Shown here: in pieces, positions 2,395-18,999 of the stretch
How positions within the stretch are numbered: position 1 is the first letter of the stretch
How the letters are laid out: each line of letters opens with the position of its first letter
From: Candidatus Omnitrophota bacterium
Lineage (GTDB): Bacteria > Omnitrophota > Gorgyraeia > B26-G9
Length of the DNA: 64,000 nt
Direction: 5' to 3'
Assembly (NCBI GenBank): GCA_043826565.1
Contig: JBDRPX010000033.1
Coordinates: 21,268 to 85,267 of the forward strand
Translations under genes and position numbers: made by a program
The notes under the pieces: generated by a model
What the model saw: the letters and a program-made list of their open reading frames with translations, nothing else
Database searches by the model: none
What the model was told of the DNA's origin: nothing

Positions 2395-3415
2395 TTTTTC
2401 CGCGCAACCTCCCTGTATACATATAGTTCATGATCAATGTCGCGACATACGTAGAAATTCTTAACACCGCTACAGCTTCCGGATCTGCGAATACCAGTTT
2501 AAGTTCTTTACATCTGGTTATTAATGTCTGCAATAAGTCATCAATAAGATACTTCTTTTCCCCGGTCCAGGTATATACACTAATTATAATATACCTTCTG
2601 AACTTTTTTATCAACTCATAAGCTAAGGCCGGCGATTTTACATCTTCGGCTTTTTCGGTAAAGATCCTCCTTAAATTAACATCATGAAAATCGGGAAAAT
2701 CTTCCGCGTAAAAATGACGCTTCTTTTTGTAGTAGTTGCTAAGACTGGTTTTTAACCGCGAAGCCTGCCAATATTTCCGGCCCTGCTTAATTTTCGGTTG
2801 AGCATCTTTAATTTCAGACATCAACACCTCAACATATTTAAGCTTTTTCAGGGCTTTCCATCCTTTATACCGGAGAGCCCAGTCAGAGTCAGACGTAAGC
2901 CATACCGCAAAAGTTTCCGCGAAATCCTCATCCGGATGATATTGCGCATAATAATCTTCTAAGTGTCGGACAAAATTTCTGCTATACGGCCGGTATTTGT
3001 AAGTATCGTTGTATTCTTTGGTAAATAACCCGAATATCTGATGCCATTTTTTTCGGCGATGTAATTTATAAGCATAATTAATGGCGTGGCCGGCCTCATG
3101 CCGCAGGAGTTTCATGCACCATTGCTTTGTGCCTCCTTCGACATCAAGCATTGTTTTCTTTTCTAATTTAATAAGCGCGGGGTGAGCTAAAAAGAAAGGA
3201 ATCCCGATTACCGGTTCTCCGTCCGGAGCAAGCCATTCATCAGCAAGATAGCAAACAGGCTTAAACTGTATGCCTTTAGCCTGGAGCTCTTCATATAAAT
3301 AATTCACACACTCTTGCAGCCAAGTACCTTCAATAGTTAAAGGTAATTCACAGATCTTTAGCTTCAGTAATTCCTCTTCAGGTATTTGGGCTAAATCTAT
3401 AATTGTTTTTAGCAT
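2378..3415 (-). CDS. Putative zinc-dependent metallopeptidase (HExxH zincin)
   Basis: It carries the motif LLRHEAGHAINYAY (HExxH) and a downstream acidic DEDFAETFAVW segment. It forms an overlapping gene pair with the ATP-grasp gene. Confidence 0.5.
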   Translation of the reverse strand: MLKTIIDLAQIPEEELLKLKICELPLTIEGTWLQECVNYLYEELQAKGIQFKPVCYLADEWLAPDGEPVIGIPFFLAHPALIKLEKKTMLDVEGGTKQWCMKLLRHEAGHAINYAYKLHRRKKWHQIFGLFTKEYNDTYKYRPYSRNFVRHLEDYYAQYHPDEDFAETFAVWLTSDSDWALRYKGWKALKKLKYVEVLMSEIKDAQPKIKQGRKYWQASRLKTSLSNYYKKKRHFYAEDFPDFHDVNLRRIFTEKAEDVKSPALAYELIKKFRRYIIISVYTWTGEKKYLIDDLLQTLITRCKELKLVFADPEAVAVLRISTYVATLIMNYMYTGRLRGKNGKKT

Positions 3416-3457
3416 AATCTTATTATACCCCTAAACAAGATTTAGAAAATATAAAAT

Positions 3458-3484
3458 TGTAGGGGCGCCGCTTGCCTGCGCCCG
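3458..3484 (-). repeat. REP-like GC-rich hairpin element, CCCCTACAGG-tail family, copy 1
   Basis: The minus strand reads CGGGCGCAGGCAAGCGGCGCCCCTACAA, matching the family consensus GGGCGG(A)G-loop-CCGCCCCTACAGG. Confidence 0.6.
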
Positions 3485-3505
3485 TGACAGATGAATTTAA
3501 TATTA

Positions 3506-4441
3506 TTACGGGCGGACACGAGGGCCGCCCCTACATCCCTGCCTTGTTCCTCGTTTCTGGAACTCATCTTCAATATCCTGCCGGACCTTATGCTTTTGGT
3601 TTATCCATTCCGGAGCAATTAAAACATCCTTGTTCGCATCCGATACCAGCCGCATAACTACACATTTAGGTGAAAGCCTTTCTAAAAAATCACAAGCCAG
3701 CTGAACATATTCATCCGATTCTAATAATTGTATCTTCCCCTCTTTATATTGTTCCTGCAGTTTCGTATCCCGCAATACATGCAGTACATGCAGTTTAACA
3801 CCATCTATAGGAAGAGTCGAAAGCACATCCGCGGTTTCCATTATTTCTTCTTTAGATTCTCCGGGAAGCCCCAAAATAACATGCACCCCGATCTTTATCC
3901 GGCGTTTTGCGGTCTGCTCTATTGCCTCCAAAAACTGCATCGTAGAATGCAGGCGGTTAATTGTTTTTAATGTTTTTTCATGAATACTCTGCAATCCATA
4001 TTCAATCCAAACGTCATATGCGCCGGCATATGTATCGATTAAATCCAGCTTAGCTTTATCAATACAATCCGGCCGGGTAGAAATAGTCAGGCCGACTATA
4101 TCCGGGAACTTTTTTATCACATCATATGTCTGGCGCAAGGTATCAACATCAGCATAAGTATTGGAAGCATTTTGAAAATAGGCGATGAACTTTTCCGCTT
4201 TAAACCGCTCACGAATAAAGCCCATTGATGTCGCGATCTGTTCTTCAATTGACGGATACACACCGGTGTAATGGCTAAACCCCTCTTCATTACAAAAAAT
4301 ACATCCCTGGTCACTTAATGTTCCGTCCCGGTTAGGACAGCTAAACCCGGCATTAATACTGATCCGGTGCACCCGCACCCCAAAGCGCTGACGCAGATAT
4401 TCGCTAAACGAATAATAATAGGTTTTATTCTTTTCATCCAT
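3506..4441 (-). CDS. Radical SAM protein, TIGR01212/YhcC family
   Basis: Motif FSCPNRDGTLSDQGCIFCN matches the CxxxxxxxCxxC variant characteristic of YhcC-type radical SAM proteins. The last ~12 codons (..RQGCRGGPRVRP) are encoded by a REP-like GC-rich element. Confidence 0.7.
   Translation of the reverse strand: MDEKNKTYYYSFSEYLRQRFGVRVHRISINAGFSCPNRDGTLSDQGCIFCNEEGFSHYTGVYPSIEEQIATSMGFIRERFKAEKFIAYFQNASNTYADVDTLRQTYDVIKKFPDIVGLTISTRPDCIDKAKLDLIDTYAGAYDVWIEYGLQSIHEKTLKTINRLHSTMQFLEAIEQTAKRRIKIGVHVILGLPGESKEEIMETADVLSTLPIDGVKLHVLHVLRDTKLQEQYKEGKIQLLESDEYVQLACDFLERLSPKCVVMRLVSDANKDVLIAPEWINQKHKVRQDIEDEFQKRGTRQGCRGGPRVRP
3510..3535 (+). repeat. REP-like element, copy 2, inverted relative to copy 1
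   Basis: GGGCGGACACGAGGGCCGCCCCTACA. It supplies the 3' end of the radical-SAM CDS. Confidence 0.6.
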
Positions 4442-5535: not shown

Positions 5536-7611
5536 CTACTGCAGTCCAAAAAGCCTCCCGCCCTGATAAATAATAAAAGAAGCGATCCAGGCAACCAGTG
5601 TAGTATAAAATACCGCAAAGAGTGCCCACCCCCAGGATTGAGTTTCCTGTTTTACTGCTCCAACAGTCGCCACGCAAGGAATGTATAGCAAAATAAAAAC
5701 CATTAATGAATAGGCAACTAAAGGAGTGAATAATTTACTCCCGTCATCACGGGTAGCTTTCTTCAGCTCCTCACGCAATATATCCGCTTCCCCGCATAAT
5801 TCTCCGACAGAATAAAGCGTACCCAAGGTCCCCACAACTATCTCTTTGCCGACTACTCCGCTAACCAAAGCCACCGCGATCTTCCACTCGCCAAAACCCA
5901 GCGGCTTAAAAACCGGGGCCACTGCCTTACCCATTCTGCCGGCATAACTATTTTCCATTTTCTCATAAGCATTAAGATTTGCTCCGGCTAAGGGAAAGTT
6001 ACTCAAAAACCAGATCAATACACAACCGGCAAAGATAATTGTCCCGGCTTTTTTCAAATACAAAACCGCCCGGTCCCAGGTATGGATAAGCAGCCCCTTT
6101 AAGGCCGGGATCCGGTACGGCGGCAATTCCATAACAAAAGGCGCGGCTTCTCCGCGGAATAAATATTTGCGGAAAATTTTAGCGACAATGATCGCGACGA
6201 CAATCCCGAGGACATACAGCGAAAACAAAATATTCCCGGCGATCTTTTCCGAAAAAAAAGCTCCGATAAATAAAGTATATACCGGAAGCCGCGCGCCGCA
6301 GCTCATAAATGAATTTACCAGAATGGTCACGATCCGGTCTCTTCTGTCCTCAATTGCCCGCGCCGCCATAATTGCCGGGACATTACAGCCAAATCCCAGC
6401 AGCATCGGGATAAAGGACCGTCCGTGCAGCCCGATCTTATGCATAAGATCATCCATAATAAAAGCCGCCCGGGCCATATATCCGGAATATTCTAAAAGTG
6501 ACATGGCAAAATACATTAATAAAATAACCGGCAGAAAGACCAGCACACTGCCTACGCCGCCGATTATCCCGTCGACAAACAAAGAACGGATCGCACTGCC
6601 GGCCGGCAAAAATCCTCCGACAAGACTAGCCAATCCTTCCTGCAGTAATTCAATAACATTCATTAAAGGCCGGCTAAGCGAAAACGTAAATTTAAACACC
6701 AGCCACATCGCCGCTAAAAATATCGGTAAGCCTAAAACTTTATTTATAAGGATCTTATCAATACTATCGGAAACAGTATGCCTGGTTTCAAATGTTTTTC
6801 GGATAGCTTCTGAACAGGCACCGCTAATAAACCCATACCTGCCGTCGGCAATAATAGCCTCGGGATTATCATTAAAAATAGTACGCAAATGCTCCACACT
6901 TTTTTTGATCTGTTCTTTCAGTTGCTCCGCGTAAGATTTTTTGCTGATCTTTTTAATAATCTCTTCATCTTCTTCTAACAACTTAAGTGCCAGCCAACCG
7001 GTGAGATATTTTTTTGTTAATTCTTCATCCTGTATCAGAATACTTTTTATTTTCTCTAACTCTTCCTGAACTTCGGCCCCATATCCTATCGGTATCGGCC
7101 AGGATTCTTCTTTATGCTCTACATAGTCAATAACCGCGTCCAGTAATTCATCCATGCCTTTTTTCTTAGAAGCCACGGTCAAGACGATCCGGCTGCCGAA
7201 AAGTTCTGATAAACGATTCACATCAATTGCCAGGCCCTGCTGCTGCGCCATATCATACATATTAAAAGCTAAGATCAGCGGAGCCCCCAACTCGAGAAAC
7301 TGTGTGGAAAGATATAAATTCCTCTCCAGATTAGAACAATCAATGACATTAACCACAACATCCGGCTTTTCTTCAATAACAAAATTACGGGCGATTACCT
7401 CATCTAAAGACTGAGCAGTCAGACTATATGTTCCGGGAAGGTCGACAATATTAATACTATATCCTTTATATTCAAGAATACCTTCAAATTTTTCTACAGT
7501 AACCCCGGAATAATTTCCGATCTTCTGTCTAAATCCGGTAAGATTATTAAATATCGTTGTCTTCCCGGAATTAGGATTTCCGGCTAAAGCAATTGTAATT
7601 TTTCTGGACAT
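5536..7611 (-). CDS. feoB: Ferrous iron transport protein B
   Basis: N-terminal GTPase (GNPNSGKTT...DLPG) followed by a large polytopic membrane domain, 691 aa. Confidence 0.95.
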   Translation of the reverse strand: MSRKITIALAGNPNSGKTTIFNNLTGFRQKIGNYSGVTVEKFEGILEYKGYSINIVDLPGTYSLTAQSLDEVIARNFVIEEKPDVVVNVIDCSNLERNLYLSTQFLELGAPLILAFNMYDMAQQQGLAIDVNRLSELFGSRIVLTVASKKKGMDELLDAVIDYVEHKEESWPIPIGYGAEVQEELEKIKSILIQDEELTKKYLTGWLALKLLEEDEEIIKKISKKSYAEQLKEQIKKSVEHLRTIFNDNPEAIIADGRYGFISGACSEAIRKTFETRHTVSDSIDKILINKVLGLPIFLAAMWLVFKFTFSLSRPLMNVIELLQEGLASLVGGFLPAGSAIRSLFVDGIIGGVGSVLVFLPVILLMYFAMSLLEYSGYMARAAFIMDDLMHKIGLHGRSFIPMLLGFGCNVPAIMAARAIEDRRDRIVTILVNSFMSCGARLPVYTLFIGAFFSEKIAGNILFSLYVLGIVVAIIVAKIFRKYLFRGEAAPFVMELPPYRIPALKGLLIHTWDRAVLYLKKAGTIIFAGCVLIWFLSNFPLAGANLNAYEKMENSYAGRMGKAVAPVFKPLGFGEWKIAVALVSGVVGKEIVVGTLGTLYSVGELCGEADILREELKKATRDDGSKLFTPLVAYSLMVFILLYIPCVATVGAVKQETQSWGWALFAVFYTTLVAWIASFIIYQGGRLFGLQ

Positions 7612-7612
7612 T

Positions 7613-7849
7613 TTAAACCTCTTTTACCATAATCCTATTGGCCATACCATGCCCCAGCATTAGCCTTGTATTATGCACCCGGATTACACACGCTCCCCGG
7701 CCATGAGAATGCAATACTTTGAATCTTACCCCCTGATTAAGCCCCATATCCGTAAGTCTTTTTCTTACCCCCTGGCCGCCCTCAACACCGGCTAAGGTAA
7801 CCTCCTGGCCTTCCGGGATTTTTAGTAACGGAATTAACTCTTCTTTCAT
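7613..7849 (-). CDS. feoA: Ferrous iron transport protein A (FeoA domain)
   Basis: 78-aa SH3-like FeoA. Its stop abuts the feoB start. Confidence 0.8.
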   Translation of the reverse strand: MKEELIPLLKIPEGQEVTLAGVEGGQGVRKRLTDMGLNQGVRFKVLHSHGRGACVIRVHNTRLMLGHGMANRIMVKEV

Positions 7850-7996
7850 CTATCTGACCTCACCTTAATGTAAAAACCGAAAATTGAATATTGATAATTG
7901 AAAGTTGGAAAACAACTTCCTACTATAAACTTTCAACCCTCATTTGTGCTTTCTGTTTTCTGTCTTCTATCTTTCATTTTAATGATTATTAATTAT

Positions 7997-8467
7997 TTAA
8001 CTTTTTTCCCGCTGCTTGCCTGTTTTTGAATAATAATCAAAATTCTTCAGCCACTGGGGCCTTTCCCCGTCAGAACACCCTTCGACAAATTCAATAAGCT
8101 TAGTTAGTTTTTCATGAGTCTGCTGGCTTATCGCGTGCTCCATGCGGCAAGCATCTTTTGTGGCTATTTTCTTATCGATCCCCAGCACCTCATCCAAAAA
8201 CTTGATCAGCATATCATGGCGTTTCTTAACATCCTGCGCCACAATTTCCCCTTCCGGAGTAAGATCAACATATCCATAACGTTCATGGATCACCAATCCG
8301 CTTTGCGTAAGCATATTCAAAGCGCTGGTCACACTGGGTTTTTTTACTTTCATAAAAAGGCTTATATCCTTAACCCGGGCCACGCCGTTGTTTTTTTTCA
8401 GGAAAACAATCGACTCCAGATAGTCTTCCATATTCGCGCTTAAACGTCTCTCATTTTTTTTCTTCAT
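7997..8467 (-). CDS. DtxR/MntR-family metal-dependent transcriptional regulator
   Basis: N-terminal winged-helix (MEDYLESIVFLKK...ARVKDISLFMKVKKPSVTSALNMLTQSGL) plus a dimerisation/metal domain. It sits directly upstream of feoAB. Confidence 0.8.
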   Translation of the reverse strand: MKKKNERRLSANMEDYLESIVFLKKNNGVARVKDISLFMKVKKPSVTSALNMLTQSGLVIHERYGYVDLTPEGEIVAQDVKKRHDMLIKFLDEVLGIDKKIATKDACRMEHAISQQTHEKLTKLIEFVEGCSDGERPQWLKNFDYYSKTGKQREKS

Positions 8468-8586
8468 TAGCCATCCTGCAATTAAGTTAGCTTTACCTTC
8501 CTCTGTTAGATAAGTCTAACATATTTTGCGCTATTTGTCAAGGCAGAAAATTAAAGCGCCATATTCAAACACTCACATTCTCAAAA

Positions 8587-8616
8587 CCGGTTCATCCCCA
8601 CGCATGTGGGGAACAA
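8587..8616 (-). repeat. Degenerate partial CRISPR repeat at the trailer end of the array
   Basis: ccggttcatccccacgcatgtggggaacaa resembles the repeat (gtttcaatccacgctcccgcatggggagcgac), including the GGGG/CCCC hairpin arms. It abuts repeat 1 with no spacer. Confidence 0.4.
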
Positions 8617-9169
8617 GTTTCAATCCACGCTCCCGCATGGGGAGCGACAAATACGCAGACCGGGACGGATTAAGATTATTTGTTTCAATCCACGCTCCCG
8701 CATGGGGAGCGACCACCCTTCAGCCAGGTTTCAAACACTTCTTTGTGTTTCAATCCACGCTCCCGCATGGGGAGCGACCTTAAAACCATGACTAATACAA
8801 CTGCAACACAGTTTCAATCCACGCTCCCGCATGGGGAGCGACTTCGCTGGTCCAGGCGCTGCCGTTCCAGATCTGTTTCAATCCACGCTCCCGCATGGGG
8901 AGCGACTTATGGTCTCAGTCGACAGTTCAAGGATATGCCTGTTTCAATCCACGCTCCCGCATGGGGAGCGACGCAACGATCGGATTTTGTTCAGTTTGTG
9001 AAACCGTTTCAATCCACGCTCCCGCATGGGGAGCGACGGTTAAGGCTGGCTTTTAAAGTGATTGGATGGAAGTTTCAATCCACGCTCCCGCATGGGGAGC
9101 GACATAATTCTAGGTCTAATTGTCGGGGTGTGGATTAGTTTCAATCCACGCTCCCGCATGGGGAGCGAC
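8617..9169 (-). CRISPR. CRISPR array, type I-C-like. It has 9 identical 32-bp repeats and 8 spacers of 32-34 bp
   Basis: Repeats start at 8617, 8682, 8747, 8811, 8875, 8941, 9006, 9072 and 9138. Read on the minus strand the repeat is GTCGCTCCCCATGCGGGAGCGTGGATTGAAAC, ending in the canonical I-C ATTGAAAC 5'-handle sequence. That places the leader at the cas2-proximal (high-coordinate) end. Confidence 0.95.
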
Positions 9170-9354
9170 GGTTACGTTACAACTTTTTTTATTTCAGACA
9201 CTTAAAAAATCATTTCTGCGAAACATTAACATTCTTGCAAAATATCCACCCTATATATAGCCTCCAACTATTTAACTATTTAATTGTCAAAGAACTACAA
9301 AGATTGCGAATCTTCCTCGTTGCCCATTATATCCTAAGGTTCGCGCTTGAATTT
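9170..9354 (-). promoter_or_regulatory. Putative CRISPR leader, AT-rich, lying between the cas2 stop and the first repeat
   Basis: Its position between cas2 and the leader-proximal repeat, and the repeat orientation, support this call. It has low GC and T-runs. Confidence 0.5.
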
Positions 9355-9648
9355 TTACAAAATAAGCGTATCTTCTTCCAAGTTGGGCACTTTCTTTGTT
9401 CCAACATGCTCAACCCGCCTTTTCCAATTAGCCCCCAAAAAATAAAACCGCAGGCTGTCGGTTTTCTGATTTATTTCTTTTATCAACTGCGCCCGTAACA
9501 TCGTCCAATGGACAGGATCGACTATACACTCAAATACTGAATACTGCACTCTCTGTCCATAATCAACACATGTTTTAGCAACCCTTCGCAAACGGCGCCG
9601 GCCTTCTTTTGTTAAAGTACTTACATCATAACTTACGATTACCAACAT
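9355..9648 (-). CDS. cas2: CRISPR-associated endoribonuclease Cas2
   Basis: 97 aa starting MLVIVSYDVSTLTKEGRRRLRRVAKTCVDYGQRVQYSVFEC. Confidence 0.9.
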   Translation of the reverse strand: MLVIVSYDVSTLTKEGRRRLRRVAKTCVDYGQRVQYSVFECIVDPVHWTMLRAQLIKEINQKTDSLRFYFLGANWKRRVEHVGTKKVPNLEEDTLIL

Positions 9649-9663
9649 ATATCTTTCCTCTTA

Positions 9664-10695
9664 TTATTTTGATACAAATGCCGGATACCCCTCAATATCT
9701 CCCCGCAAATACCGCGCGAACAACAATGCCTGCACATAAAACAAAAGACCTACTTTTATTTCCTCTTTCAAATAAGGGTGTGTTATTGATTCTTGTTTGC
9801 GGCTTTGATAAGCAGTGATTACAGTTTTGCGCGTTTCATCGTTCATAATAACTGCGCCGCTCTCCATCTTTTTAAATCCGCTTTTTTTAACTTGTCCCAG
9901 ATTTATCAGAGAAAGCACCAAACGGTCAGCCAAATATGCTCTAAATTCTTCCTGCATATCAAGAGCAAGTCCCGGACGGCCGGGACGGTCCCGGTGCAAA
10001 AATCCAACATACGGATCAAGGCCTACGGTTTCCAGTGCCGAACGCACATCATGCATTATTAATGTGTATAAAAAAGAAAGCAGACAATTGACATTGTCCC
10101 GCGGCGGACGACGGTTACGTTCATTAAAACTAAAATCCTCTTTTTGCTGTAGTATTAAATGGTCAAAAACACCAAAATAAGCCGCCGCAGACTCCCCTTC
10201 AATCCCGCGCAATTCATCCAAGGAGCCGGCTCTCTGAAGATTCTGCAAAGAATAGCGCAGTCTATTTGCCGCTGTATCAACACTATCTTTTTCCGGCTGA
10301 TCAGGATAATCACGAGTAAATCTTTTCAAGACATTCCTGGAATTAGCCAGCTTACTCATAAGTATCCATTGCGCCACGGCAAGACTAATATTAATATCAT
10401 CCGCATACCGATACTGGGTACGCCGCAATAACACATTACCCTGGGTCTTCCCTTTTACCGAAGCCAGGAACCTGCCGTATTCTGTAAGAAAACTTACTGT
10501 CACTTTATGTTCGGCACAAAAACCCATTAAATACGGGCTCATACTCACTTGTCCGAAACAAACAATACCGCCGATTGTATGCACTGGTAATCGCAGACGC
10601 GTATCATCCCCAACTTTCACAACAATGGTTTCTCCCTCTTTGTGCAAATAAGAACCCTGGGTAGTAACAAATAATATATTTAATAAATGCTTCAT
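9664..10695 (-). CDS. cas1: CRISPR-associated integrase Cas1 (I-C type)
   Basis: 343 aa with Cas1-like acidic/His catalytic region. It sits next to cas2 and cas4. Confidence 0.9.
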   Translation of the reverse strand: MKHLLNILFVTTQGSYLHKEGETIVVKVGDDTRLRLPVHTIGGIVCFGQVSMSPYLMGFCAEHKVTVSFLTEYGRFLASVKGKTQGNVLLRRTQYRYADDINISLAVAQWILMSKLANSRNVLKRFTRDYPDQPEKDSVDTAANRLRYSLQNLQRAGSLDELRGIEGESAAAYFGVFDHLILQQKEDFSFNERNRRPPRDNVNCLLSFLYTLIMHDVRSALETVGLDPYVGFLHRDRPGRPGLALDMQEEFRAYLADRLVLSLINLGQVKKSGFKKMESGAVIMNDETRKTVITAYQSRKQESITHPYLKEEIKVGLLFYVQALLFARYLRGDIEGYPAFVSK

Positions 10696-11318
10696 TACCC
10701 TATCAATACCTTCTCAAAATAATCACTCACTCCGTTATCGACTAAGATTTTCGGCATACACAAATCAAGCAATGAACATTTTTCACAGCGTTTTTCATAT
10801 ACAGCCGGCGGAGTTTTTCCCGCCTGCATAAGTTCATGCACACACCTAATCGCGTCTATGGTTATATCACGCAAATGCCGACTAAATATTACTTCCAGCC
10901 GATGACGCGTTTTCCCGTAAAAAATAGCACCTTTTTCAATCTCTATATCCAGCATCTCTTCCAGACAAAGTGCCTGCGCGCAAAGCTGAACCTTATCCGA
11001 ATCATCACGCTTAGGTTTGCCTCTTTTATACTCAACCGGAAACGGTACCCACACATCACCTTTTTTATGAAATTCAACAACATCTGCTTTGCCGCTTAAT
11101 CCTAAACGCATTGAATAGAGAGACACGCCATGTTCCATTCTAACGCCGGAACGTTTTTGATATTTCTCCTCATGCACATTATCATGCATCACCCGGCCCT
11201 CGGCAGTGAACAAATTTTCAATCCACACCTGTTCAAGATGGATCAACGCGCATTGCCGACGGCAGAAAATAAAATGCTGTAAAGCAGAAAGCTGTATAAA
11301 ATCTTCGTCAGAATACAT
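10695..11318 (-). CDS. cas4: CRISPR-associated exonuclease Cas4 (RecB-like nuclease with a C-terminal Cys cluster)
   Basis: 207 aa with an N-terminal Cys (FIFCRRQCALIHLEQ) and a C-terminal CEKCSLLDLC motif. Its start codon overlaps the stop of the upstream DinD-like gene (TAATG). Confidence 0.85.
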   Translation of the reverse strand: MYSDEDFIQLSALQHFIFCRRQCALIHLEQVWIENLFTAEGRVMHDNVHEEKYQKRSGVRMEHGVSLYSMRLGLSGKADVVEFHKKGDVWVPFPVEYKRGKPKRDDSDKVQLCAQALCLEEMLDIEIEKGAIFYGKTRHRLEVIFSRHLRDITIDAIRCVHELMQAGKTPPAVYEKRCEKCSLLDLCMPKILVDNGVSDYFEKVLIG

Positions 11319-12160
11319 TACTTTATCTTTTTTCTCGACTCATTTTCTTTCAAATAATTATTTTTGGAAACAATCGGCCTTTTAAGTTTTTTCTCTAACG
11401 CTTTTCGGGCATTACCAGCTATACTACCTCCAGAGTGCGCATCTTTTTTAAGTTTCTTTACTCCTATAGAATTTTCGTTCCGATGAATCTCTGTGGTAGA
11501 CCTCTCTCCCAGCATGGTAAAAATCAACTCAAAATCATCCATATGATCCCGCAAATTCTCCCGTTTCAGCCCCTTTAGCTTTTTATATTCATTTGGCGTA
11601 ACACCAAACGCGGCTTTAGAAACTTCCGCCGTTAATATTTCGTAGTCTCTATCTTCTTTTGCCCCCCGCTTTTGCCACTCATCAGTCAACTCATCCCGGA
11701 TAGCAATACCTCTCATACGTTTTTCTATCCAGTCTTCGCTGTACCCCTTTAGCTTATAAAGCATTCTGGTCCTTTTAGTCGCCAGCTCCGGATTTTCTAT
11801 CTCTTGTATCTTTTCATAACCAGCCTTTGCCAGCCAGCGTTTGAACGGCTCGGCTTTAGGCGAAGGAATGGATTGAACAAGTCTAAAAATTCCTTCCGTA
11901 TTCCAACAATACATCTTTTGCTTGCCCCCCGGCGTTTCTACTTCAAGCATAAGGGGTGGTACAAATTGTACCCCCCCTTGATCTATTAATTTCGCAAGCT
12001 CTTCATCTCTCTGTTTTAACCGCTTAAAGTATTGCGCGGGGTCATTAGAATCAGTTAACGATTTAATAACATCATTAACCACAAACCACCATTCTTTTTG
12101 ATGCAGTGTCTTCCTAATTTTTTCGCCTTTAAATATTGCGATTTTAGTGTTAAAGCTCAT
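11318..12160 (-). CDS. Bro-N-domain protein of the DinD (DNA-damage-inducible protein D) type, embedded in the cas operon
   Basis: The N-terminus (IAIFKGEKIRKTLHQKEWWFVVNDVIKSLTDSNDPAQYFKRLKQRDEE) fits the Bro-N pattern F.G..IR.....WF.A.DVA..LG..NP. The C-terminal block (LKGLKRENLRDHMDDFELIFTMLGERSTTEIH...SGGSIAGNARKALEKKL) matches what I recall of the conserved DinD C-terminal region; this is from memory and no HMM was run. There is a 24-nt gap with an SD after cas7 and a 1-nt overlap with cas4. Confidence 0.65.
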   Translation of the reverse strand: MSFNTKIAIFKGEKIRKTLHQKEWWFVVNDVIKSLTDSNDPAQYFKRLKQRDEELAKLIDQGGVQFVPPLMLEVETPGGKQKMYCWNTEGIFRLVQSIPSPKAEPFKRWLAKAGYEKIQEIENPELATKRTRMLYKLKGYSEDWIEKRMRGIAIRDELTDEWQKRGAKEDRDYEILTAEVSKAAFGVTPNEYKKLKGLKRENLRDHMDDFELIFTMLGERSTTEIHRNENSIGVKKLKKDAHSGGSIAGNARKALEKKLKRPIVSKNNYLKENESRKKIK

Positions 12161-12184: not shown

Positions 12185-13021
12185 TTACAACTTTTCTATA
12201 ATCTCGACCCCGGATGGTATTTTATCTTTATTTATTACAACCGAATAATCTTTCCATTCACGCGGTAAACCAGCATTATTTTTTATACTGATACGTTCAA
12301 ATAATTCACCCGAACGCGCATTACCAAGATGACTCGCGTGTTTAAAAATAATTAATTTACGCGGATTCATTTCACCACGAGCAGCTGCGCGGTCATGTTC
12401 AAAAGCGTTTAAAAGAGATTCCCAAAGAAGTTCTAAGTCATTTTCTGAAAATTTAGTTTTTGTGGCATCTACGGCTGATATGAATCCATGCATACGATAA
12501 AGAGCATATGGGACAGTAGCTTTACGGCCAAAAGTGGAAGCGTGTTCTCTTTTTTCCTGGGCCTTTGCTTCGGCTGGTGTTGTTACTGCGCACCGTGTAA
12601 TAGAATGCTCTGCCTGATATATACGGTCTTGTGATCTGGAAAAAGTAAACTGAACAGGTCCCCGAACAGTTCCAGCACCTTTGTCTCCTGTGCTTAATAC
12701 TGCTCCAAAGGTTCTAATATCAAAATAATTCTGACATAAAGAGTTTTGTCTATCTTGTGGCCTTTCACCCGACGCGGAATCAATAATATTATTCAGAATA
12801 TTTTCCTGCCGAATAAAAATATCATAAGGAGCTTTCAATTGATGCTTCAATGTAACATAATTTCTAACTTTTCTCTTAATACACACATCTGTTACCAAGC
12901 CCTCCTGATTTTCAGCGTCAGTGCGCGGTAAATTTGCCTGATCGGGATCACCGTTAGGATTGCCGTCTTTCACATCAAACAGAAATACAAAATCATACCT
13001 ATTTTTTATTGCTTCGTTCAT
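12185..13021 (-). CDS. cas7: Cas7 (Csd2, type I-C backbone protein)
   Basis: Hallmark FLFDVKDGNPNGDPD motif; 278 aa. Confidence 0.9.
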   Translation of the reverse strand: MNEAIKNRYDFVFLFDVKDGNPNGDPDQANLPRTDAENQEGLVTDVCIKRKVRNYVTLKHQLKAPYDIFIRQENILNNIIDSASGERPQDRQNSLCQNYFDIRTFGAVLSTGDKGAGTVRGPVQFTFSRSQDRIYQAEHSITRCAVTTPAEAKAQEKREHASTFGRKATVPYALYRMHGFISAVDATKTKFSENDLELLWESLLNAFEHDRAAARGEMNPRKLIIFKHASHLGNARSGELFERISIKNNAGLPREWKDYSVVINKDKIPSGVEIIEKL

Positions 13022-13022
13022 T

Positions 13023-14783
13023 TTATTCCTCCTCTATCGTTTCTTTTAATTCCGCCCTATTAAATTGCGCTTGTTTTTGGTGATAATAGCCGATTGCAAA
13101 TTGGCCCTGTTCTTCCAGAGTAAATACTGATGGAAAATTTTCAATTTTAATTTCCTTACATAACGACTGTAATTCTTTGTCTAATACAACCGCCAGTCCC
13201 GGTTTTTCTCCTTTTAGTTTTGTGAAATGCTTTGAACTTAAATTGAATAACCTGCCGAAAGCCGGAGATGGTGTAGTCAAAGCAAATGTAAAATACCTTT
13301 CTCTTATTCCCGCGTTAGTTTTACCCTGAGCGGCTCGTTGAATGCTCTCCAATACCGCGAAAATTCTTCCGCAGGTATAAGCCGTGGGTTTGTTTGTTCC
13401 AGTTAATTTTTCCTGAGCCATAAAATCACCTCCTCTATTGTTTCGGTTAAGAATCAGCTTAATTAGTGATGCCCGTTCACGAGTAACACCATTTTGATCT
13501 AATTGCGCGCGTTTCAATACAGCTGATAAAATCCATAAAGGCAGAGTAGTATTTTTCAATGCTGCATCCCATAAATAAACGGCGGTGCGAGATAAAATTG
13601 TATCTTTATTTTCTTTCTCTTTTTGACAACATCTTGCTAATTCATAAAGGCGCGAATAATATGTCTGGCTTCTCTTTAAATCAAAATCATAATAGTCTAT
13701 CGCTATATCTTTAAACCAGCATCCGATTGACTTCCGAAAATCCGCAAGGCTGGTTTCTATCCAGTCACGTACAACAATGCGAGCCGCTGCTCCGGAAAGC
13801 GTACAAGAATAAAATCTATCTGTCTCAAGGTATTGCATATTTTTTGTTTCGCCGGCAGTTATGGAGTCAATCAGACTTGCTACCTCCTGTGGGTCAGGGG
13901 CATCCAGTAAATCAATTTCTTTGATTTTTTCATTTTCCCGTGTCCAAAAAACCATTGCCGTATCTGAACCAAAATTTTTACGATTAGTATAATTTGTATA
14001 CTCTTTTCCTTTCTTGTTTTTTACTCTTGATCCTGTTGATAAAAGCCAATTCAAACCTTCAACATATGTTTTAGCGCAATTTGTGCATATTGCGGAATTA
14101 TTATTGCCCTCTAAGTTATATGATTCAAAAGCATCTTCATTATAAGACACCAAAGCGGAACCGCTACTTTGACCATCAGGAACTCTCTTAATCATGCCAT
14201 GAGGTGTATCACACACAGGGTAATTTGTTTTTCCACAAATTGAACATTTAATATTAGATGTGGCTAGGAATGATTTTTGCTCGTTTTCATAATGTTCAAT
14301 CAAGCTTTGATAAACTGCCGATTCTTCATGAACACGCTTATCTTTATTCAAAATTCGAAAAGCAATATTACCTCTTCTTTCTTTTTCATTGGGAATCGCT
14401 TTCTCAAACTCAATCAGCGCTTTATCCAATCCATTTATTTTATTTTGTCCATAAAAAACTAAAACCGGTGTTAACTCCTTTAAATTCTTGTATTGCTCCA
14501 GTTTTCCCATAAACAACCAATGCTTTTTTATAGACGATTCGCCGCCATAACCCAACACCTCTTCTGCTTTATCAAGGAGCAACCGCGCTTTGCCTTTCTT
14601 AGCTGTAATTGCCTCCGCGGTTGTCATCTTTTTTTCAAACAGCAGAAAAGAATGAAAACTACCATCTTCCTTAATAACGAGATCAATGGAAATCGGATCT
14701 TCTTTTAAAGCATCATGAATCAATTTTTGCCCTGAATTTTGTATGCGGAGTTTTTTACCAAGTTCACTTAATTCCCGAATCAT
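13023..14783 (-). CDS. cas8c: Cas8c (Csd1, type I-C large subunit)
   Basis: 586 aa, between cas5 and cas7 as in I-C operons. It has a Cys-rich segment (CSICGKTNYPVCDTPHG). Confidence 0.8.
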   Translation of the reverse strand: MIRELSELGKKLRIQNSGQKLIHDALKEDPISIDLVIKEDGSFHSFLLFEKKMTTAEAITAKKGKARLLLDKAEEVLGYGGESSIKKHWLFMGKLEQYKNLKELTPVLVFYGQNKINGLDKALIEFEKAIPNEKERRGNIAFRILNKDKRVHEESAVYQSLIEHYENEQKSFLATSNIKCSICGKTNYPVCDTPHGMIKRVPDGQSSGSALVSYNEDAFESYNLEGNNNSAICTNCAKTYVEGLNWLLSTGSRVKNKKGKEYTNYTNRKNFGSDTAMVFWTRENEKIKEIDLLDAPDPQEVASLIDSITAGETKNMQYLETDRFYSCTLSGAAARIVVRDWIETSLADFRKSIGCWFKDIAIDYYDFDLKRSQTYYSRLYELARCCQKEKENKDTILSRTAVYLWDAALKNTTLPLWILSAVLKRAQLDQNGVTRERASLIKLILNRNNRGGDFMAQEKLTGTNKPTAYTCGRIFAVLESIQRAAQGKTNAGIRERYFTFALTTPSPAFGRLFNLSSKHFTKLKGEKPGLAVVLDKELQSLCKEIKIENFPSVFTLEEQGQFAIGYYHQKQAQFNRAELKETIEEE

Positions 14784-15508
14784 AACTCCACCCCCTCATC
14801 CTGATTAAAATTATAAATAACCGCGGATGTTTCGCTATTTATTGGGGGGCGGACATGGGTTGATTGCATCATTTTGTCATTTTCCGGAACTTCACAATTT
14901 AAAACACCGTTACGTATTGCCGCATCATAGAAAAACAACGGTTCAGGCTTTCCATTCGCGTCATAAAATATATCGAACAGCATACTCCCGATAGGAATTG
15001 TTTCCTGTATCGGTTGTTCATTTCCATCCGGCGCCATAAATTCAGCAGAAAACTCACGCGTGCCAAGATACGGCCTGCGCCAGCATTGTCCTTTTTTTAC
15101 TCGGCGGGGGAACATACCTTCTCTTCCGCTATTCATTCCAATGTACTTTTCAGGACGGTTCTTATCAGATTTTTCTTTTTGCCAAATTGACGCTTCAATG
15201 ATATAAGCCGCATCCTTTAACACTACACTGTTACGTTGCGCGCGCTTTTCTTCAATTACAATAGGTCTTCGCCCTTGTTTAGAATTAATCTCATTACGCT
15301 TAACCGTATAAAATTTAATTGGGTTCAAAACTAATATTTTTCTTACATACCACTGAAATTCCGGCTTCCACAAAATTGAATCAAGAACGCCCCTTGCCGC
15401 AGAAGGAGTCATACAAGGATAGGTCATTCGTTCTACTTTCAGGTCTGGTCTTGTAAAACACGCGAAATCTCCCGTCACTTTAACACGTACAATTTGTTTA
15501 TCAATCAT
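14780..15508 (-). CDS. cas5: Cas5c (Cas5d, I-C crRNA-processing Cas5)
   Basis: N-terminus VRVKVTGDFACFTRPDLKVERMTYPCMTPSAARGVLDSILWKPEFQW is typical Cas5d. No cas6 is present, as expected for I-C. Confidence 0.9.
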   Translation of the reverse strand: MIDKQIVRVKVTGDFACFTRPDLKVERMTYPCMTPSAARGVLDSILWKPEFQWYVRKILVLNPIKFYTVKRNEINSKQGRRPIVIEEKRAQRNSVVLKDAAYIIEASIWQKEKSDKNRPEKYIGMNSGREGMFPRRVKKGQCWRRPYLGTREFSAEFMAPDGNEQPIQETIPIGSMLFDIFYDANGKPEPLFFYDAAIRNGVLNCEVPENDKMMQSTHVRPPINSETSAVIYNFNQDEGVEL

Positions 15509-15550: not shown

Positions 15551-17785
15551 TCATACTATTAATTTATCCGCCTCAATCGGCTCTACAGAAATACCGGTAT
15601 TTGAGTCATAATTTCCATACCAAACGAAAAAACCTTGAGGCATTTTTTTACACATATTTTGATTCTTAAATAAAAAATTCTGATAAACCTGCACAGTAAA
15701 TGCCTGCATCTTACGGTAATCATCCCGCGATAAATATTCCTTATGTTCTATAGAGTGAAATATTTTTTTACTTTCTTCGCTATAGCTATAAATGAAAAGC
15801 CCTTCGGTTACGTTAGAAATCAATCTATAGCTATCACCAACTGTTTCAAAATTAAAATCTTCCTGTGCTTTTATAATATTATTCTTATCCGGATCCACAA
15901 ATAAATTCACTACTTGAGAATAATATTCCTGGAAGAAATCATAGTCATATAATTTATTAATATCCGTCTGAATCAAACTTTTTGTATGTTCCGCGCACGC
16001 TTTATAAGTTTTATCCGGCATCCCGCTTTCTTTTAGTTGAAATAAATACACTTTCCCATATTCCGGCAATTTCCCTTCACGATTACACCGTCCCGCTGAC
16101 TGAATAATAGATTCCAGCGGCGCCATTGCGCGAAAAACGCAAGAAAAATCAAAATCTACTCCTGCTTCAATCAGTTGGGTGGAAGAAACTAATATTTTAC
16201 GTTTTTTTTCTAAATCCTCCCGAATATTATCAATAATTTGTCTGCGATGAACAGGACACATCGCCGTTGACAAATGGTATTTTTTTTCCCAAACTTCAAT
16301 GTTTTGAGCACAGTTATAAAAATTCAAAACAGCTTTCTTTGTATTAAATATGACCAAAACAGAAGAATTTGTTTCTTTTACAGTTTCCAGCAATTCATCA
16401 AGCTCGATAGCGTTTAAATCTTGCAAAAGATTATAATCAACCCTCCGGGTTTTTTCGAAAATTTCTGAAGGATTATCAATAAGCGGATATATTGAATCGA
16501 TTCCATTAAATTTATCCCGTTTTTCAAACGCGGGTTGTGTTGCCGTACAAAACAAAAAAGATGCACCCATTACTGCCTGAATATTTTTTAGTATGGAAAG
16601 TGTCGGCAAAATAATTTCTTTGGGCAGGGATTGAACCTCATCGAAAATCACTACGGATTGAGCGATATTATGATTTTTACGGCATTTGGAAGGCTTATTG
16701 CTGAAAAGTGATTCAAAAAATTGAACTGTTGTTGTCACAATAATTGGATAATCCCAATTTTCACAGGCTAAAATTTTTCTTTTTTGAATGGTATCTAAAT
16801 TATTTTCATCATCCTGTATCGCGGAATTATTTTCATTATAGCTGGAGTGATGTTCCAATACCAATTTTTCGCCGAATATTCTTTTTAACTCAGAGGCTGT
16901 TTGGTCAATAATATTAATATAAGGCAATACTATTATAATTCGCTTTAATCCGTTTGCTTTCGCATGACGAAGAGCCCATGCTATGGAGATAAGCGTTTTC
17001 CCAGTGCCTGTCGGAAGATTCAACGAATAAAAACCAGGTGTTTTATTTGCCTTTTCCAAAACAATTTTTCTTGTATAATTACGTAACTGATTGAGTTCCC
17101 CATTCGTAGGCTTATTAGAAAATTCTTTTTCAAGTTTTTCTATCATTTCATCTATCGGTAAAATATATTTACCGCGGCTTTGAGATTTATCAGGTTCATA
17201 AAAGGCCTCGGTATCAAGCCAATCCGCATCTATTAAAGCACTAAACAAATAGCGGATAAAAAGTTCTCTTTGTAATGGATCTGAATATACCGCTGATAAA
17301 GATTTATTATTGTTCTCAGAAAAAGCAGTATCTTTTATAAAAGACTCAATAACCGAATCAAATTCAGCCACATCTTTTCTTTTGAATTTTTCTGTATCTA
17401 TTTTTAAATCAGATTTATTGGGCAAACCTTTATGATGTCCATCAATTGCAAAAGGGATCTCAATCATTCCAAGAATTCTGGCATATCCGGCTCCCCATAC
17501 GGCATGAGGAACACTACCACGCTTGCCACCTTCAACAAGATATTTCTGAAAATCTGGTTGATATTTTCCAAAATCGTGCAACATCCCGGCTATATTGAAT
17601 AAAAATTTCACGGTATCGTTATTACCAAACGATGCTGCTAATTTTGCGACGTTTTTTAAATGCTCGCCAAGCGTCTGCCATTCACTTTTCGGTTTATCTT
17701 TTAAACTATGCGCGTAATATTTCATTTTCCCCCGATAAGATGCATTGACTACCAATCTCACGACCACCGCTTTCTTTACCTCCAA
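15551..17785 (-). CDS. cas3: Cas3 HD-nuclease/helicase. The maximal ORF starts with TTG at 17785; a more likely start is the ATG at 17725 (MKYYAHS...), which has a GGGGG SD
   Basis: HD motif (LHDFGKYQPDFQ) followed by DEAD/DEAH-box helicase motifs (LPTGTGKT, DEVQ). It is the first gene of the operon. Confidence 0.9.
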   Translation of the reverse strand: MEVKKAVVVRLVVNASYRGKMKYYAHSLKDKPKSEWQTLGEHLKNVAKLAASFGNNDTVKFLFNIAGMLHDFGKYQPDFQKYLVEGGKRGSVPHAVWGAGYARILGMIEIPFAIDGHHKGLPNKSDLKIDTEKFKRKDVAEFDSVIESFIKDTAFSENNNKSLSAVYSDPLQRELFIRYLFSALIDADWLDTEAFYEPDKSQSRGKYILPIDEMIEKLEKEFSNKPTNGELNQLRNYTRKIVLEKANKTPGFYSLNLPTGTGKTLISIAWALRHAKANGLKRIIIVLPYINIIDQTASELKRIFGEKLVLEHHSSYNENNSAIQDDENNLDTIQKRKILACENWDYPIIVTTTVQFFESLFSNKPSKCRKNHNIAQSVVIFDEVQSLPKEIILPTLSILKNIQAVMGASFLFCTATQPAFEKRDKFNGIDSIYPLIDNPSEIFEKTRRVDYNLLQDLNAIELDELLETVKETNSSVLVIFNTKKAVLNFYNCAQNIEVWEKKYHLSTAMCPVHRRQIIDNIREDLEKKRKILVSSTQLIEAGVDFDFSCVFRAMAPLESIIQSAGRCNREGKLPEYGKVYLFQLKESGMPDKTYKACAEHTKSLIQTDINKLYDYDFFQEYYSQVVNLFVDPDKNNIIKAQEDFNFETVGDSYRLISNVTEGLFIYSYSEESKKIFHSIEHKEYLSRDDYRKMQAFTVQVYQNFLFKNQNMCKKMPQGFFVWYGNYDSNTGISVEPIEADKLIV

Positions 17786-18105: not shown

Positions 18106-18999
18106 ATGAAGATAAATATCGCTAAATCCGCGGGTTTTTGTTTTGGAGTTAAGAACGCTCTAAAAATAGCTCTTAATGCCGCTTCTTCCGGCAAGCATAT
18201 TGATATGCTCGGAGATATTGTCCACAATGAAGCCGTGGTCAAAGATATCCGGAAAACCGGCATAAAAAAAATAGGCAAACTAGGCACGGGAAAAGGAAAA
18301 ACTCTGCTGATCCGCGCGCACGGCGCTGCGCTTAAAACACATCAAAAAGCTAAAGAACTCGGATATGCGATAATTGACGCGACTTGCCCCATGGTCAAAG
18401 AGATCCATAAGCTTGCCAAAGACGCGGAGAAAAAAGGTTATACGGTCATAATTATCGGGGATCAAAAACACGATGAAGTTAAAGGTATTATCGGCCAGCT
18501 TAAAACCAAGCCGATCCTTATCGACAAAATAGAAACTATCCCGGTGTCTAAAATAAAGCAGATCAAAAAAGCCGCGGTTGTTGTGCAGTCTACAAGAAAT
18601 TTAACTAAAACAATTCTTTTAGTCGAAGAAATAAAACAATACATAAAAACAGTTAAATTTTATAACACCATCTGCAACCCCACCCGGATCAAACAAAAAG
18701 AAATGCAGGCTATGCCGCTGGATAATGACCTGATGATCATTATCGGTTCCAAAACCAGCGCCAATACAAAACGTTTATATGAATTATCCAAAACATTAAA
18801 TGAAAAAAGTTATTGGATCCAGTCCAAAAAAGATCTTAAACCTTCCTGGTTTAAAGGCGTAAAAAAGGTCGGCGTTACTTCCGGCGCCTCCACTCCGGAT
18901 AAAACCACTAATGAAGTGGTTTTAGAAATCCAAAGGATTTCTAAACAGTCTCAAGCCACAAGTCTCAAGTCTCAAGCTAAAGACAGTAAAAAAAGGTAA
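18106..18999 (+). CDS. ispH: 4-hydroxy-3-methylbut-2-enyl diphosphate reductase (IspH/LytB)
   Basis: MKINIAKSAGFCFGVKNAL... with conserved Cys at positions ~12, ~94 and ~191. The C-terminal tail is encoded by a short-repeat tract. Confidence 0.9.
   Translation: MKINIAKSAGFCFGVKNALKIALNAASSGKHIDMLGDIVHNEAVVKDIRKTGIKKIGKLGTGKGKTLLIRAHGAALKTHQKAKELGYAIIDATCPMVKEIHKLAKDAEKKGYTVIIIGDQKHDEVKGIIGQLKTKPILIDKIETIPVSKIKQIKKAAVVVQSTRNLTKTILLVEEIKQYIKTVKFYNTICNPTRIKQKEMQAMPLDNDLMIIIGSKTSANTKRLYELSKTLNEKSYWIQSKKDLKPSWFKGVKKVGVTSGASTPDKTTNEVVLEIQRISKQSQATSLKSQAKDSKKR

Follow-up and report, generated by a model that had tools for sequence, protein, structure and literature searches.

What does an additional gene do inside a complete type I-C operon of a CRISPR-cas locus? 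This question is raised by a 64,000-nt stretch of DNA from a Candidatus Omnitrophota bacterium (assembly GCA_043826565.1, contig JBDRPX010000033.1, positions 21,268 to 85,267 of the forward strand), hereafter referred to as the window. It contains an open reading frame (ORF) between cas7 and cas4, for whose 280-aa product we use the working name X; loci from other genomes are cited by the labels of our analysis (L-numbers). We found that X is a real, recurrent, operon-embedded accessory gene and not a core cas gene, and that its family recurs inside operons whose effector is a superfamily 2 (SF2) helicase-nuclease. By analogy with its closest structural relative, the DNA damage protein DdrC, X probably binds DNA lesions.

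The initial annotation had described an extra ORF in this position and had assigned it to the operon. Both statements were confirmed. All genes flanking X are cas genes according to Pfam and NCBIfam models, the I-C locus is complete, and a CRISPR array is present (Table 1). The stop codon of cas7 (12185-12187) is separated from the ATG of X (12160-12158) by a gap of only 24 nt that includes an AAGGAG motif; the window shows no separate promoter region for X. At the other end, the stop codon of X overlaps the start codon of cas4. No terminator-like site was seen from cas7 through X to cas4, and promoter-like matches over the operon occur at chance level (32 compared to 28.3 +/- 6.5 in shuffled sequences). 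From this arrangement, X is predicted to be placed for cotranscription with the I-C genes and for translational coupling to cas4. Both peptides that had been quoted earlier for X were found in its translation.

X belongs to a large and strongly conserved family. At least 8000 homologues were obtained in a search of about 5.8 billion proteins. With 78-100% identity to X, the best 120 originate from Omnitrophota, Patescibacteria, Planctomycetota, Lentisphaerota, Bipolaricaulota, and others, including a 100% identical "Bro-N domain-containing protein" from a metagenome-assembled genome of Candidatus Omnitrophota. Contigs from a collection with one genome per species contained at least 525 relatives, and the best 80 of these span more than ten phyla at 68-86% identity. 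Among representatives of 50%-identity clusters, 6365 clusters matched with E<=1e-3, 541 of them with E<=1e-30. We also compared the window with five other I-C loci. The third codon positions of X are only 35-49% identical and synonymous divergence (dS) is saturated, while X has a nonsynonymous divergence (dN) of 0.11-0.24, below the values obtained from these pairs of loci for cas1 (0.30-0.42) and cas4 (0.30-0.49). The G+C content of X (0.401) is close to that of the window (0.404). The number of homologues, the low dN at saturated dS, and the window-like G+C content exclude a spurious frame, and the saturated dS together with the low third-position identity rules out recent transfer as the cause of the high identity of X. 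Judged from its sequence, X is a functional, strongly constrained two-domain protein that is predicted to bind DNA. Its identity of 70-86% across phyla and differing host operons suggests that its ligand or partner is invariant, for example a structure in DNA or a protein as universal as RecA, and speaks against a sequence-specific operator or a specific Cas partner.

The N-terminal part of X had been assigned to the Bro-N fold, and this is borne out by the match to PF02498 (Table 1), which reaches 50.1 bits compared to a Pfam cut-off of 25.6. The region shows the expected beta-hairpin and winged helix of the KilA-N/APSES/Dachshund type. Since an initial AlphaFold2 (AF2) model based on 40 near-identical sequences was poor at the N-terminus, we refer to a second model based on an alignment of two subfamilies. 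Here, the predicted local distance difference test (pLDDT) scores of blocks in the Bro-N region are mostly about 80 (53-59 around aa 51-70), and the C-terminal helical domain reaches 88-98 over most of its length. Two families cover X completely: the PADLOC family PDC-S13 (model PDLC04920; E=2.6e-102, X 1-278 aligned to model positions 1-275 of 286) and phrog_15286, a family of unknown function (E=1.3e-80). PHROG families named Ant or "anti-repressor" match the Bro-N part only (X residues 5-150). NCBIfam contains no model that matches X even at E<=10. A comparison with RhuM had also been suggested, but Pfam PF13310 did not match at E<=0.01. Pfam likewise revealed no ANT/KilAC C-terminal domain, and neither the Pfam, NCBIfam, and PADLOC scans nor the structure searches detected an effector domain (nuclease, NADase, membrane). 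Taken alone, these statements on the identity of X and on its embedding in the operon are, in our judgment, very probably correct.

The C-terminal block of X had been likened to Escherichia coli DinD. Remote homology could be verified, orthology could not. Pairwise BLASTP between X and DinD gave a nonsignificant E=0.063, in line with the missing NCBIfam model. But a family member 41% identical to X matches the C-terminus of DinD at E=7e-8, a profile built from 66 diverse members and X matches DinD 137-254 at E=1e-7, and hhalign aligned the X family to DinD with 79% probability (E=1.6e-5). Like X, E. coli DinD (b3645) consists of an N-terminal Bro-N domain and the homologous C-terminal domain with the motif KGLK...L.DHM..EL, and the two proteins are of similar length (274 aa and 280 aa). 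Unlike X, dinD is a stand-alone SOS gene located between yicC and yicG, outside any defence operon. According to these scores, X is not a DinD orthologue, and the two proteins are related at the superfamily level only.

Searching the PDB with the single X sequence yielded only noise, and DdrC emerged with profile and structure. In the sequence search with the family profile, it was the only significant PDB family (7udi_A, E=0.001), with a weak score of about 21 bits and an alignment restricted to the C-terminal domain (profile positions 139-254 to DdrC 114-222). Foldseek with the model of X retrieved six DdrC chains at E=8e-6 (probability 1.00) to 1e-3; the next match had E=0.66. The best structural match of X, and the only clear one, is DdrC (PDB 7qvb, 7udi, 8u0g, 8u1j). 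Both proteins combine an N-terminal beta-hairpin and winged helix (Bro-N/Dachshund-like) with helical linkers and a C-terminal helical bundle, at a sequence identity of about 12-13%. Both domains of DdrC match X by structure, the C-terminal one also by sequence profile. Unlike X, DdrC has no link to immunity genes. It is induced by DNA damage, forms a homodimer, binds to pairs of nicks or double-strand breaks, and compacts or circularises DNA (PMC9303277; PMC11347143). Homologues in organisms other than Deinococcus were reported to be missing (PMC11347143). The dimer is asymmetric (PMC11347143); this asymmetry and the lesion binding can be carried over to X only by analogy. An approximate manual reading of the profile alignment, with the DdrC residues taken from PMC11347143, aligns three of the four mutated DNA-contacting residues of DdrC with residues of the family. 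R142 is placed at X R171 and R164 at X K193, both of which are basic. K170 falls at X E201, beside K199/R200, and R128 at X D156, which adjoins the conserved R155. Outside this set, R120 corresponds to X R148 and R173-D174 to X R204-D205 (invariant or near-invariant in the family). X, DinD, and DdrC share a two-domain architecture and appear to form one superfamily.

The occurrence of X in CRISPR operons was surveyed in a sample of 80 species-level loci of the subfamily present in the window, with the cas gene order determined by tblastn with the Cas proteins of the window. X is located inside type I cas operons in 8/80 loci, seven of them I-C-like and one I-G. The arrangement in the window is not a one-off: the order cas7-X-cas4-cas1-cas2 was also found in six other species-level genomes (L004, L024, L031, L065, L074, L078), which belong to Thermodesulfovibrionia, Verrucomicrobia, Omnitrophota, and Kiritimatiellia. 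The junction between X and cas4 measures -4 to +2 nt in L004, L024, L031, L065, and L078, and the distance between cas7 and X in I-C loci ranges from an overlap to 1.7 kb. The remaining I-C-like locus, L048, has another order: cas3-cas4-X, then a fragment of cas1, then a truncated second copy of cas4. In the type I-G locus (L073), X is located between cas3g and cas8g with overlapping codons. A Campylobacterota branch of the family, about 42-44% identical to X and 72-100% conserved within the branch, is found in I-B loci in all four sampled members (L089, L101, L103, L104-106). Here, X directly follows cas3 in three cases and is located between cas4 and cas1 in the fourth. The latter is plasmid pACLO of Arcobacter cloacae, with the order cas3, AAA_14/DUF4143 ATPase gene, cas4, X, cas1b, cas2. 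The chromosome of Sulfurospirillum multivorans and an Aliarcobacter genome share the order cas3-X-cas4-cas1-cas2, and X and cas4 overlap by 4 nt in the I-B loci L101 and L103. In Sulfurimonas (L104, 8340-14663), cas3 and X are directly followed by a CRISPR array of more than 6 kb, and cas4, cas1, and cas2 were not found within 7 kb.

Taken together, X is recurrently present at conserved positions in the cas operons of diverse genomes, and its CRISPR embedding involves three subtypes and as many positions. A single capture with later vertical descent was considered for the CRISPR-linked copies; a neighbour-joining tree of X, of low resolution, puts them in at least three places. A rough binomial estimate for 8/80 loci in cas operons gives P ~6.5e-12, based on a background of 0.2% that is our own estimate and on loci that are not independent. 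The association with CRISPR is neither predominant nor exclusive, with about 10% of the 80 loci in cas operons. In L048, the full order (5702-9773) is cas4, X, a 28-aa cas1 fragment, a gene for a four-helix-bundle protein, the truncated cas4, cas1, and cas2, an order suggestive of recombination, or of a partly duplicated adaptation module, around X. Short remnants of cas genes adjoin X in three otherwise cas-free surroundings (cas3 in L005, 10875-11075, and L082, 1189-2006; cas4 in L054, 1363-1497), as if X had outlived a decayed CRISPR locus.

X also recurs in restriction-type operons. In 6/80 loci from six phyla (L022, L040, L041, L060, L071, L077), it is located between an HKD(PLD)-SNF2 helicase gene and a type IIG restriction/methylase gene. 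The gaps measure 1-12 nt on the 5' side of X; on the 3' side, L040 has a gap of 88 nt and the other five loci one of 2 nt. This HKD-SNF2/type IIG system resembles DISARM, and X seems to belong to it as an integral component. Within the loci, the cassette copies of X are found at about 10000-10830 or 2530-3630; compared to L077, the cassette helicases are 62-75% identical in five loci, with a variant of 32% identity in L022. Embedding in type I restriction-modification (R-M) loci had been suggested for such proteins, but the frequent neighbours of the subfamily do not include hsd genes.

The proposal that X is a domesticated phage antirepressor or anti-CRISPR gene appears unlikely from its distribution. 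No relatives of X were found in 2.9 million IMG/VR contigs, and a phage collection contained only four small contigs with matches at 37-47% identity. X has the N-terminal Bro-N domain in common with the phage BRO/Ant antirepressors, but it differs from them in its C-terminal domain, which is not of the ANT/KilAC type, and in its near-absence from phages. A phage origin of X was rejected because of this near-absence from phage and viral collections.

How could such a protein contribute to these operons? X is located directly after cas3 in three of the four I-B loci, directly after cas3g in I-G, and directly after the HKD-SNF2 helicase gene in the type IIG operons; in I-C, it follows cas7, the last of the effector genes. 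We propose that X would act as a dimer that recognizes DNA structures rather than sequences, namely nicks, ends, or junctions between single- and double-stranded DNA, and that it would bind the lesions left in invader DNA by Cas3 or a restriction-type nuclease. As the most likely consequence, the broken target DNA would be held or shielded from RecA-dependent repair and recombination, thereby reinforcing interference. Shielding from RecA is suggested because DinD inhibits RecA filaments. In CRISPR loci, the bound fragments might perhaps also be passed on to Cas4-Cas1-Cas2. We give this mechanism as a whole, a dimeric lesion binder that reinforces interference and possibly feeds adaptation, a little less than an even chance. 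A more far-reaching version seems rather unlikely to us: X would define a widespread and hitherto undescribed CRISPR-linked family of lesion sensors of the DdrC/DinD type, which work with Cas3 and restriction helicase-nucleases and join the damage from interference to the recombination machinery and to spacer capture by Cas4-Cas1-Cas2, and DdrC would represent one branch of a near-universal superfamily that also includes DinD.

A number of findings weigh against a dedicated lesion binder of helicase-nuclease operons. Most copies of X are found outside defence operons, next to tRNA synthetase and gyrase genes or in the arrangements TsaD-X-MraZ and X-Der-GroES in candidate phyla. Lesion binding and the dimeric state are extrapolated from DdrC, whose sequence match is weak, and the putative link to RecA derives from a single distant relative, DinD. 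Moreover, the cas7-cas4 junction may be a mere permissive insertion site, because it hosts unrelated small genes. We compared this junction in eight metagenomic loci with related Cas4 proteins, which are too few for a frequency estimate. Four of them (L093, L094, L095, L098) carry genes for four-helix-bundle proteins of the 23S rRNA intervening sequence (23S-rRNA-IVS) type at this site. In L094 (69-902), a relative of X is split into ORFs of 205 aa and 67 aa, which could be a pseudogene with a frameshift or could stem from misassembly, and at the edge of the L098 contig lies the C-terminal part of an X relative. In L024, a Verrucomicrobia I-C locus, genes for a DUF2281 antitoxin-like protein and a MazF/PemK toxin are inserted between cas7 and X (6614-7194). 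The junction thus serves as a landing site for nested genes in general.

Like X, the genes for the four-helix-bundle proteins, MazEF, the AAA_14-DUF4143 ATPase, and PrrC (in hsd loci) are small, nested, and oriented in the same direction as their host operon, and some of them occupy the same cas7-cas4 or cas3-cas4 junction. Unlike X, they have unrelated folds and are far less conserved, and the position of X is biased towards helicase-nucleases and cas4. Genes nested in defence systems were described by Payne et al. (bioRxiv 10.1101/2024.01.29.577857), who used embedding as the criterion for their PDC families. These families are derived from embedding in BREX, DISARM, and type I R-M systems, and their main text does not use the term "CRISPR-Cas" (bioRxiv 10.1101/2024.01.29.577857). 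X matches PDC-S13 over its full length and is likewise embedded in a multi-gene defence system; PDC-S13 itself is a predicted candidate only, like all PDC families.

These observations allow other explanations. X could be an autonomous single-gene anti-phage system that, for example, senses phage DNA ends or replication intermediates and arrests the cell, and that is nested for co-regulation and co-transfer. The choice of PDC-S13 by guilt-by-embedding would fit this idea, as would the presence of the same protein in several unrelated operons and alone, and the nesting of the MazF pair and the AAA_14-DUF4143 ATPase at the same places. But both domains of X resemble a non-enzymatic DNA-binding protein and no effector domain was detected, X is preferentially positioned directly after a helicase-nuclease gene or before cas4 with overlapping codons, and the Campylobacterota branch is embedded in CRISPR loci in all sampled members. 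We consider this explanation somewhat unlikely. The initial annotation had also suggested an accessory role in adaptation. In such a role, X would capture DNA ends or Cas3 degradation products or present them to Cas4-Cas1-Cas2 for primed or naive spacer acquisition. Subtypes I-B, I-C, and I-G all use Cas4, and a DdrC-like binder of ends and nicks would be a plausible prespacer handler. This role fits the I-C and most of the I-B positions: X is found directly 5' of cas4, at a tight or overlapping junction, in the six I-C loci with the gene order of the window and in two I-B loci. In Arcobacter cloacae it separates cas4 from cas1, and in L048 it comes directly after cas4. An adaptation role is at odds with the I-G locus, where X is far from cas4 and cas1, the Sulfurimonas locus, where X is placed between cas3 and the array, or the six helicase/type IIG operons, which involve no adaptation. 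Furthermore, most I-C systems do not contain X; it is a relic in two of the eight Cas4-related loci, and the cas7-cas4 junction of L099 is empty, with a gap of 57 nt. A dedicated adaptation function is improbable in our view.

X might instead be a selfish or neutral hitchhiker that recombines into permissive sites between the genes of often-transferred operons and has no part in CRISPR function, or a transcriptional regulator or antirepressor of the operon. The accumulation of unrelated small genes at the cas7-cas4 junction would agree with hitchhiking, as would the location of X beside cas fragments (cas3 in L005 and L082, cas4 in L054, and the cas1 fragment and duplicated cas4 in L048), and the PHROG "anti-repressor" families do cover the Bro-N part. 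However, purifying selection on X is stronger than on cas1 at saturated dS, and no transposase, integrase, or terminal repeats travel with this gene, which is nearly absent from viral collections. X lacks an ANT/KilAC antirepressor domain, and an operator-binding protein would hardly remain 70-86% identical across operons and phyla with differing promoters. This makes a hitchhiker or regulator distinctly improbable. Finally, an anti-CRISPR protein or a brake on autoimmunity would inhibit Cas3 or Cascade or limit damage to the chromosome. X does adjoin cas3 in I-B and I-G, and copies beside decayed cas3 genes might be interpreted as what inhibition has left behind. Given that X belongs to a host operon, on the same strand and with coupled translation, that it was not found on phages, and that cas genes remain intact and arrays long in these loci, such a function is highly improbable.

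Our analysis places the PADLOC candidate PDC-S13 in a structural and evolutionary context, and the CRISPR operons represent a new context for this already listed family. We did not find a description of an X-type gene in cas operons in the literature, but our search did not include many subscription papers and is no proof of absence. The comparison also links DinD and DdrC, two DNA damage proteins between which no relationship was found described in the literature searched; none of the papers listed seemed to mention the two together. How type I interference, with long-range DNA degradation by Cas3, is connected to recombination and repair and to primed adaptation is only partly understood, and a lesion binder in three Cas4-using subtypes would be a testable player; X occurs in the cultured hosts Sulfurospirillum multivorans and Arcobacter cloacae. 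Its presence in the HKD-SNF2/type IIG operons suggests a general "after-the-cut" accessory role in DNA-degrading immunity. Were X only a hitchhiker, type I loci would still have a hotspot for nested genes where the interference module borders on the adaptation module.

Some details of the other nested genes are added here. Genes for four-helix-bundle proteins are located at 1791-2393 in L093, 918-1499 in L094, 308-805 and 859-1455 in L098, and 7326-7841 in L048. They sometimes adjoin X, and the truncated cas4 of L048 is fused to another domain of this kind. A gene for an ATPase with AAA_14 and DUF4143 domains is found between cas3 and cas4 in L089 (4230-5489), and the same kind of ATPase is encoded directly upstream of X in two other genomes (L036, 4916-6079; L061, 8658-9830). 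This suggests that the AAA_14-DUF4143 ATPase gene is another nested gene that co-travels. A relative of X (38-45% identical) follows ParA-ParB on two plasmids of Candidatus Chlorohelix allophototropha (L090, 3999-6828; L092, 3734-6852), and the second plasmid carries a type I-D cas3 about 4 kb downstream.

Table 1. Features of the type I-C locus and of X, with positions in the 64,000-nt window.
Feature	Position	Strand	Basis or remark
X (Bro-N/DdrC-DinD-like; PADLOC PDC-S13 family)	11318-12160	minus	ATG start, 280 aa; ORF list
Bro-N domain of X, aa 15-112	11825-12118	minus	PF02498, E=4.5e-13
C-terminal helical domain of X, aa ~139-259	11384-11746	minus	remotely homologous to the DinD C-terminal domain, probably also to that of DdrC
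cas7-X spacer, 24 nt, TTTATCCAAGCAAGGAGATGTCAA	12161-12184	minus	AAGGAG 7 nt 5' of the X ATG
TAATG, X stop/cas4 start	11316-11320	minus	one base common to TAA 11320-11318 and ATG 11318-11316
cas3 (HD nuclease and helicase)	15551-17785	minus	TIGR01587, TIGR01596
cas5c	14780-15508	minus	TIGR01876, E=8.9e-41
cas8c (csd1)	13023-14783	minus	TIGR01863, E=3.6e-82
cas7c (csd2)	12185-13021	minus	TIGR02589, E=6.6e-90
cas4	10695-11318	minus	TIGR00372, E=9.3e-42
cas1c	9664-10695	minus	TIGR03640, E=8.2e-153
cas2	9355-9648	minus	TIGR01573, E=5.1e-20
CRISPR array, at least 9 copies of a 32-nt repeat	8608-9174	minus	repeat copies 64-66 nt apart

The repeat of the array reads GTCGCTCCCCATGCGGGAGCGTGGATTGAAAC on the minus strand, with the 3' end ...ATTGAAAC. 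Beyond cas3, a divergent LytB/IspH gene is located at 18106-18999 (Pfam E=8.8e-83). On the array side, the locus is flanked by what we take, from the translations, to be a gene for a DtxR-type regulator (ORF 7997-8467) and FeoB (5536-7611). The flanks of the I-C locus in the window are ordinary housekeeping genes rather than a defence island.

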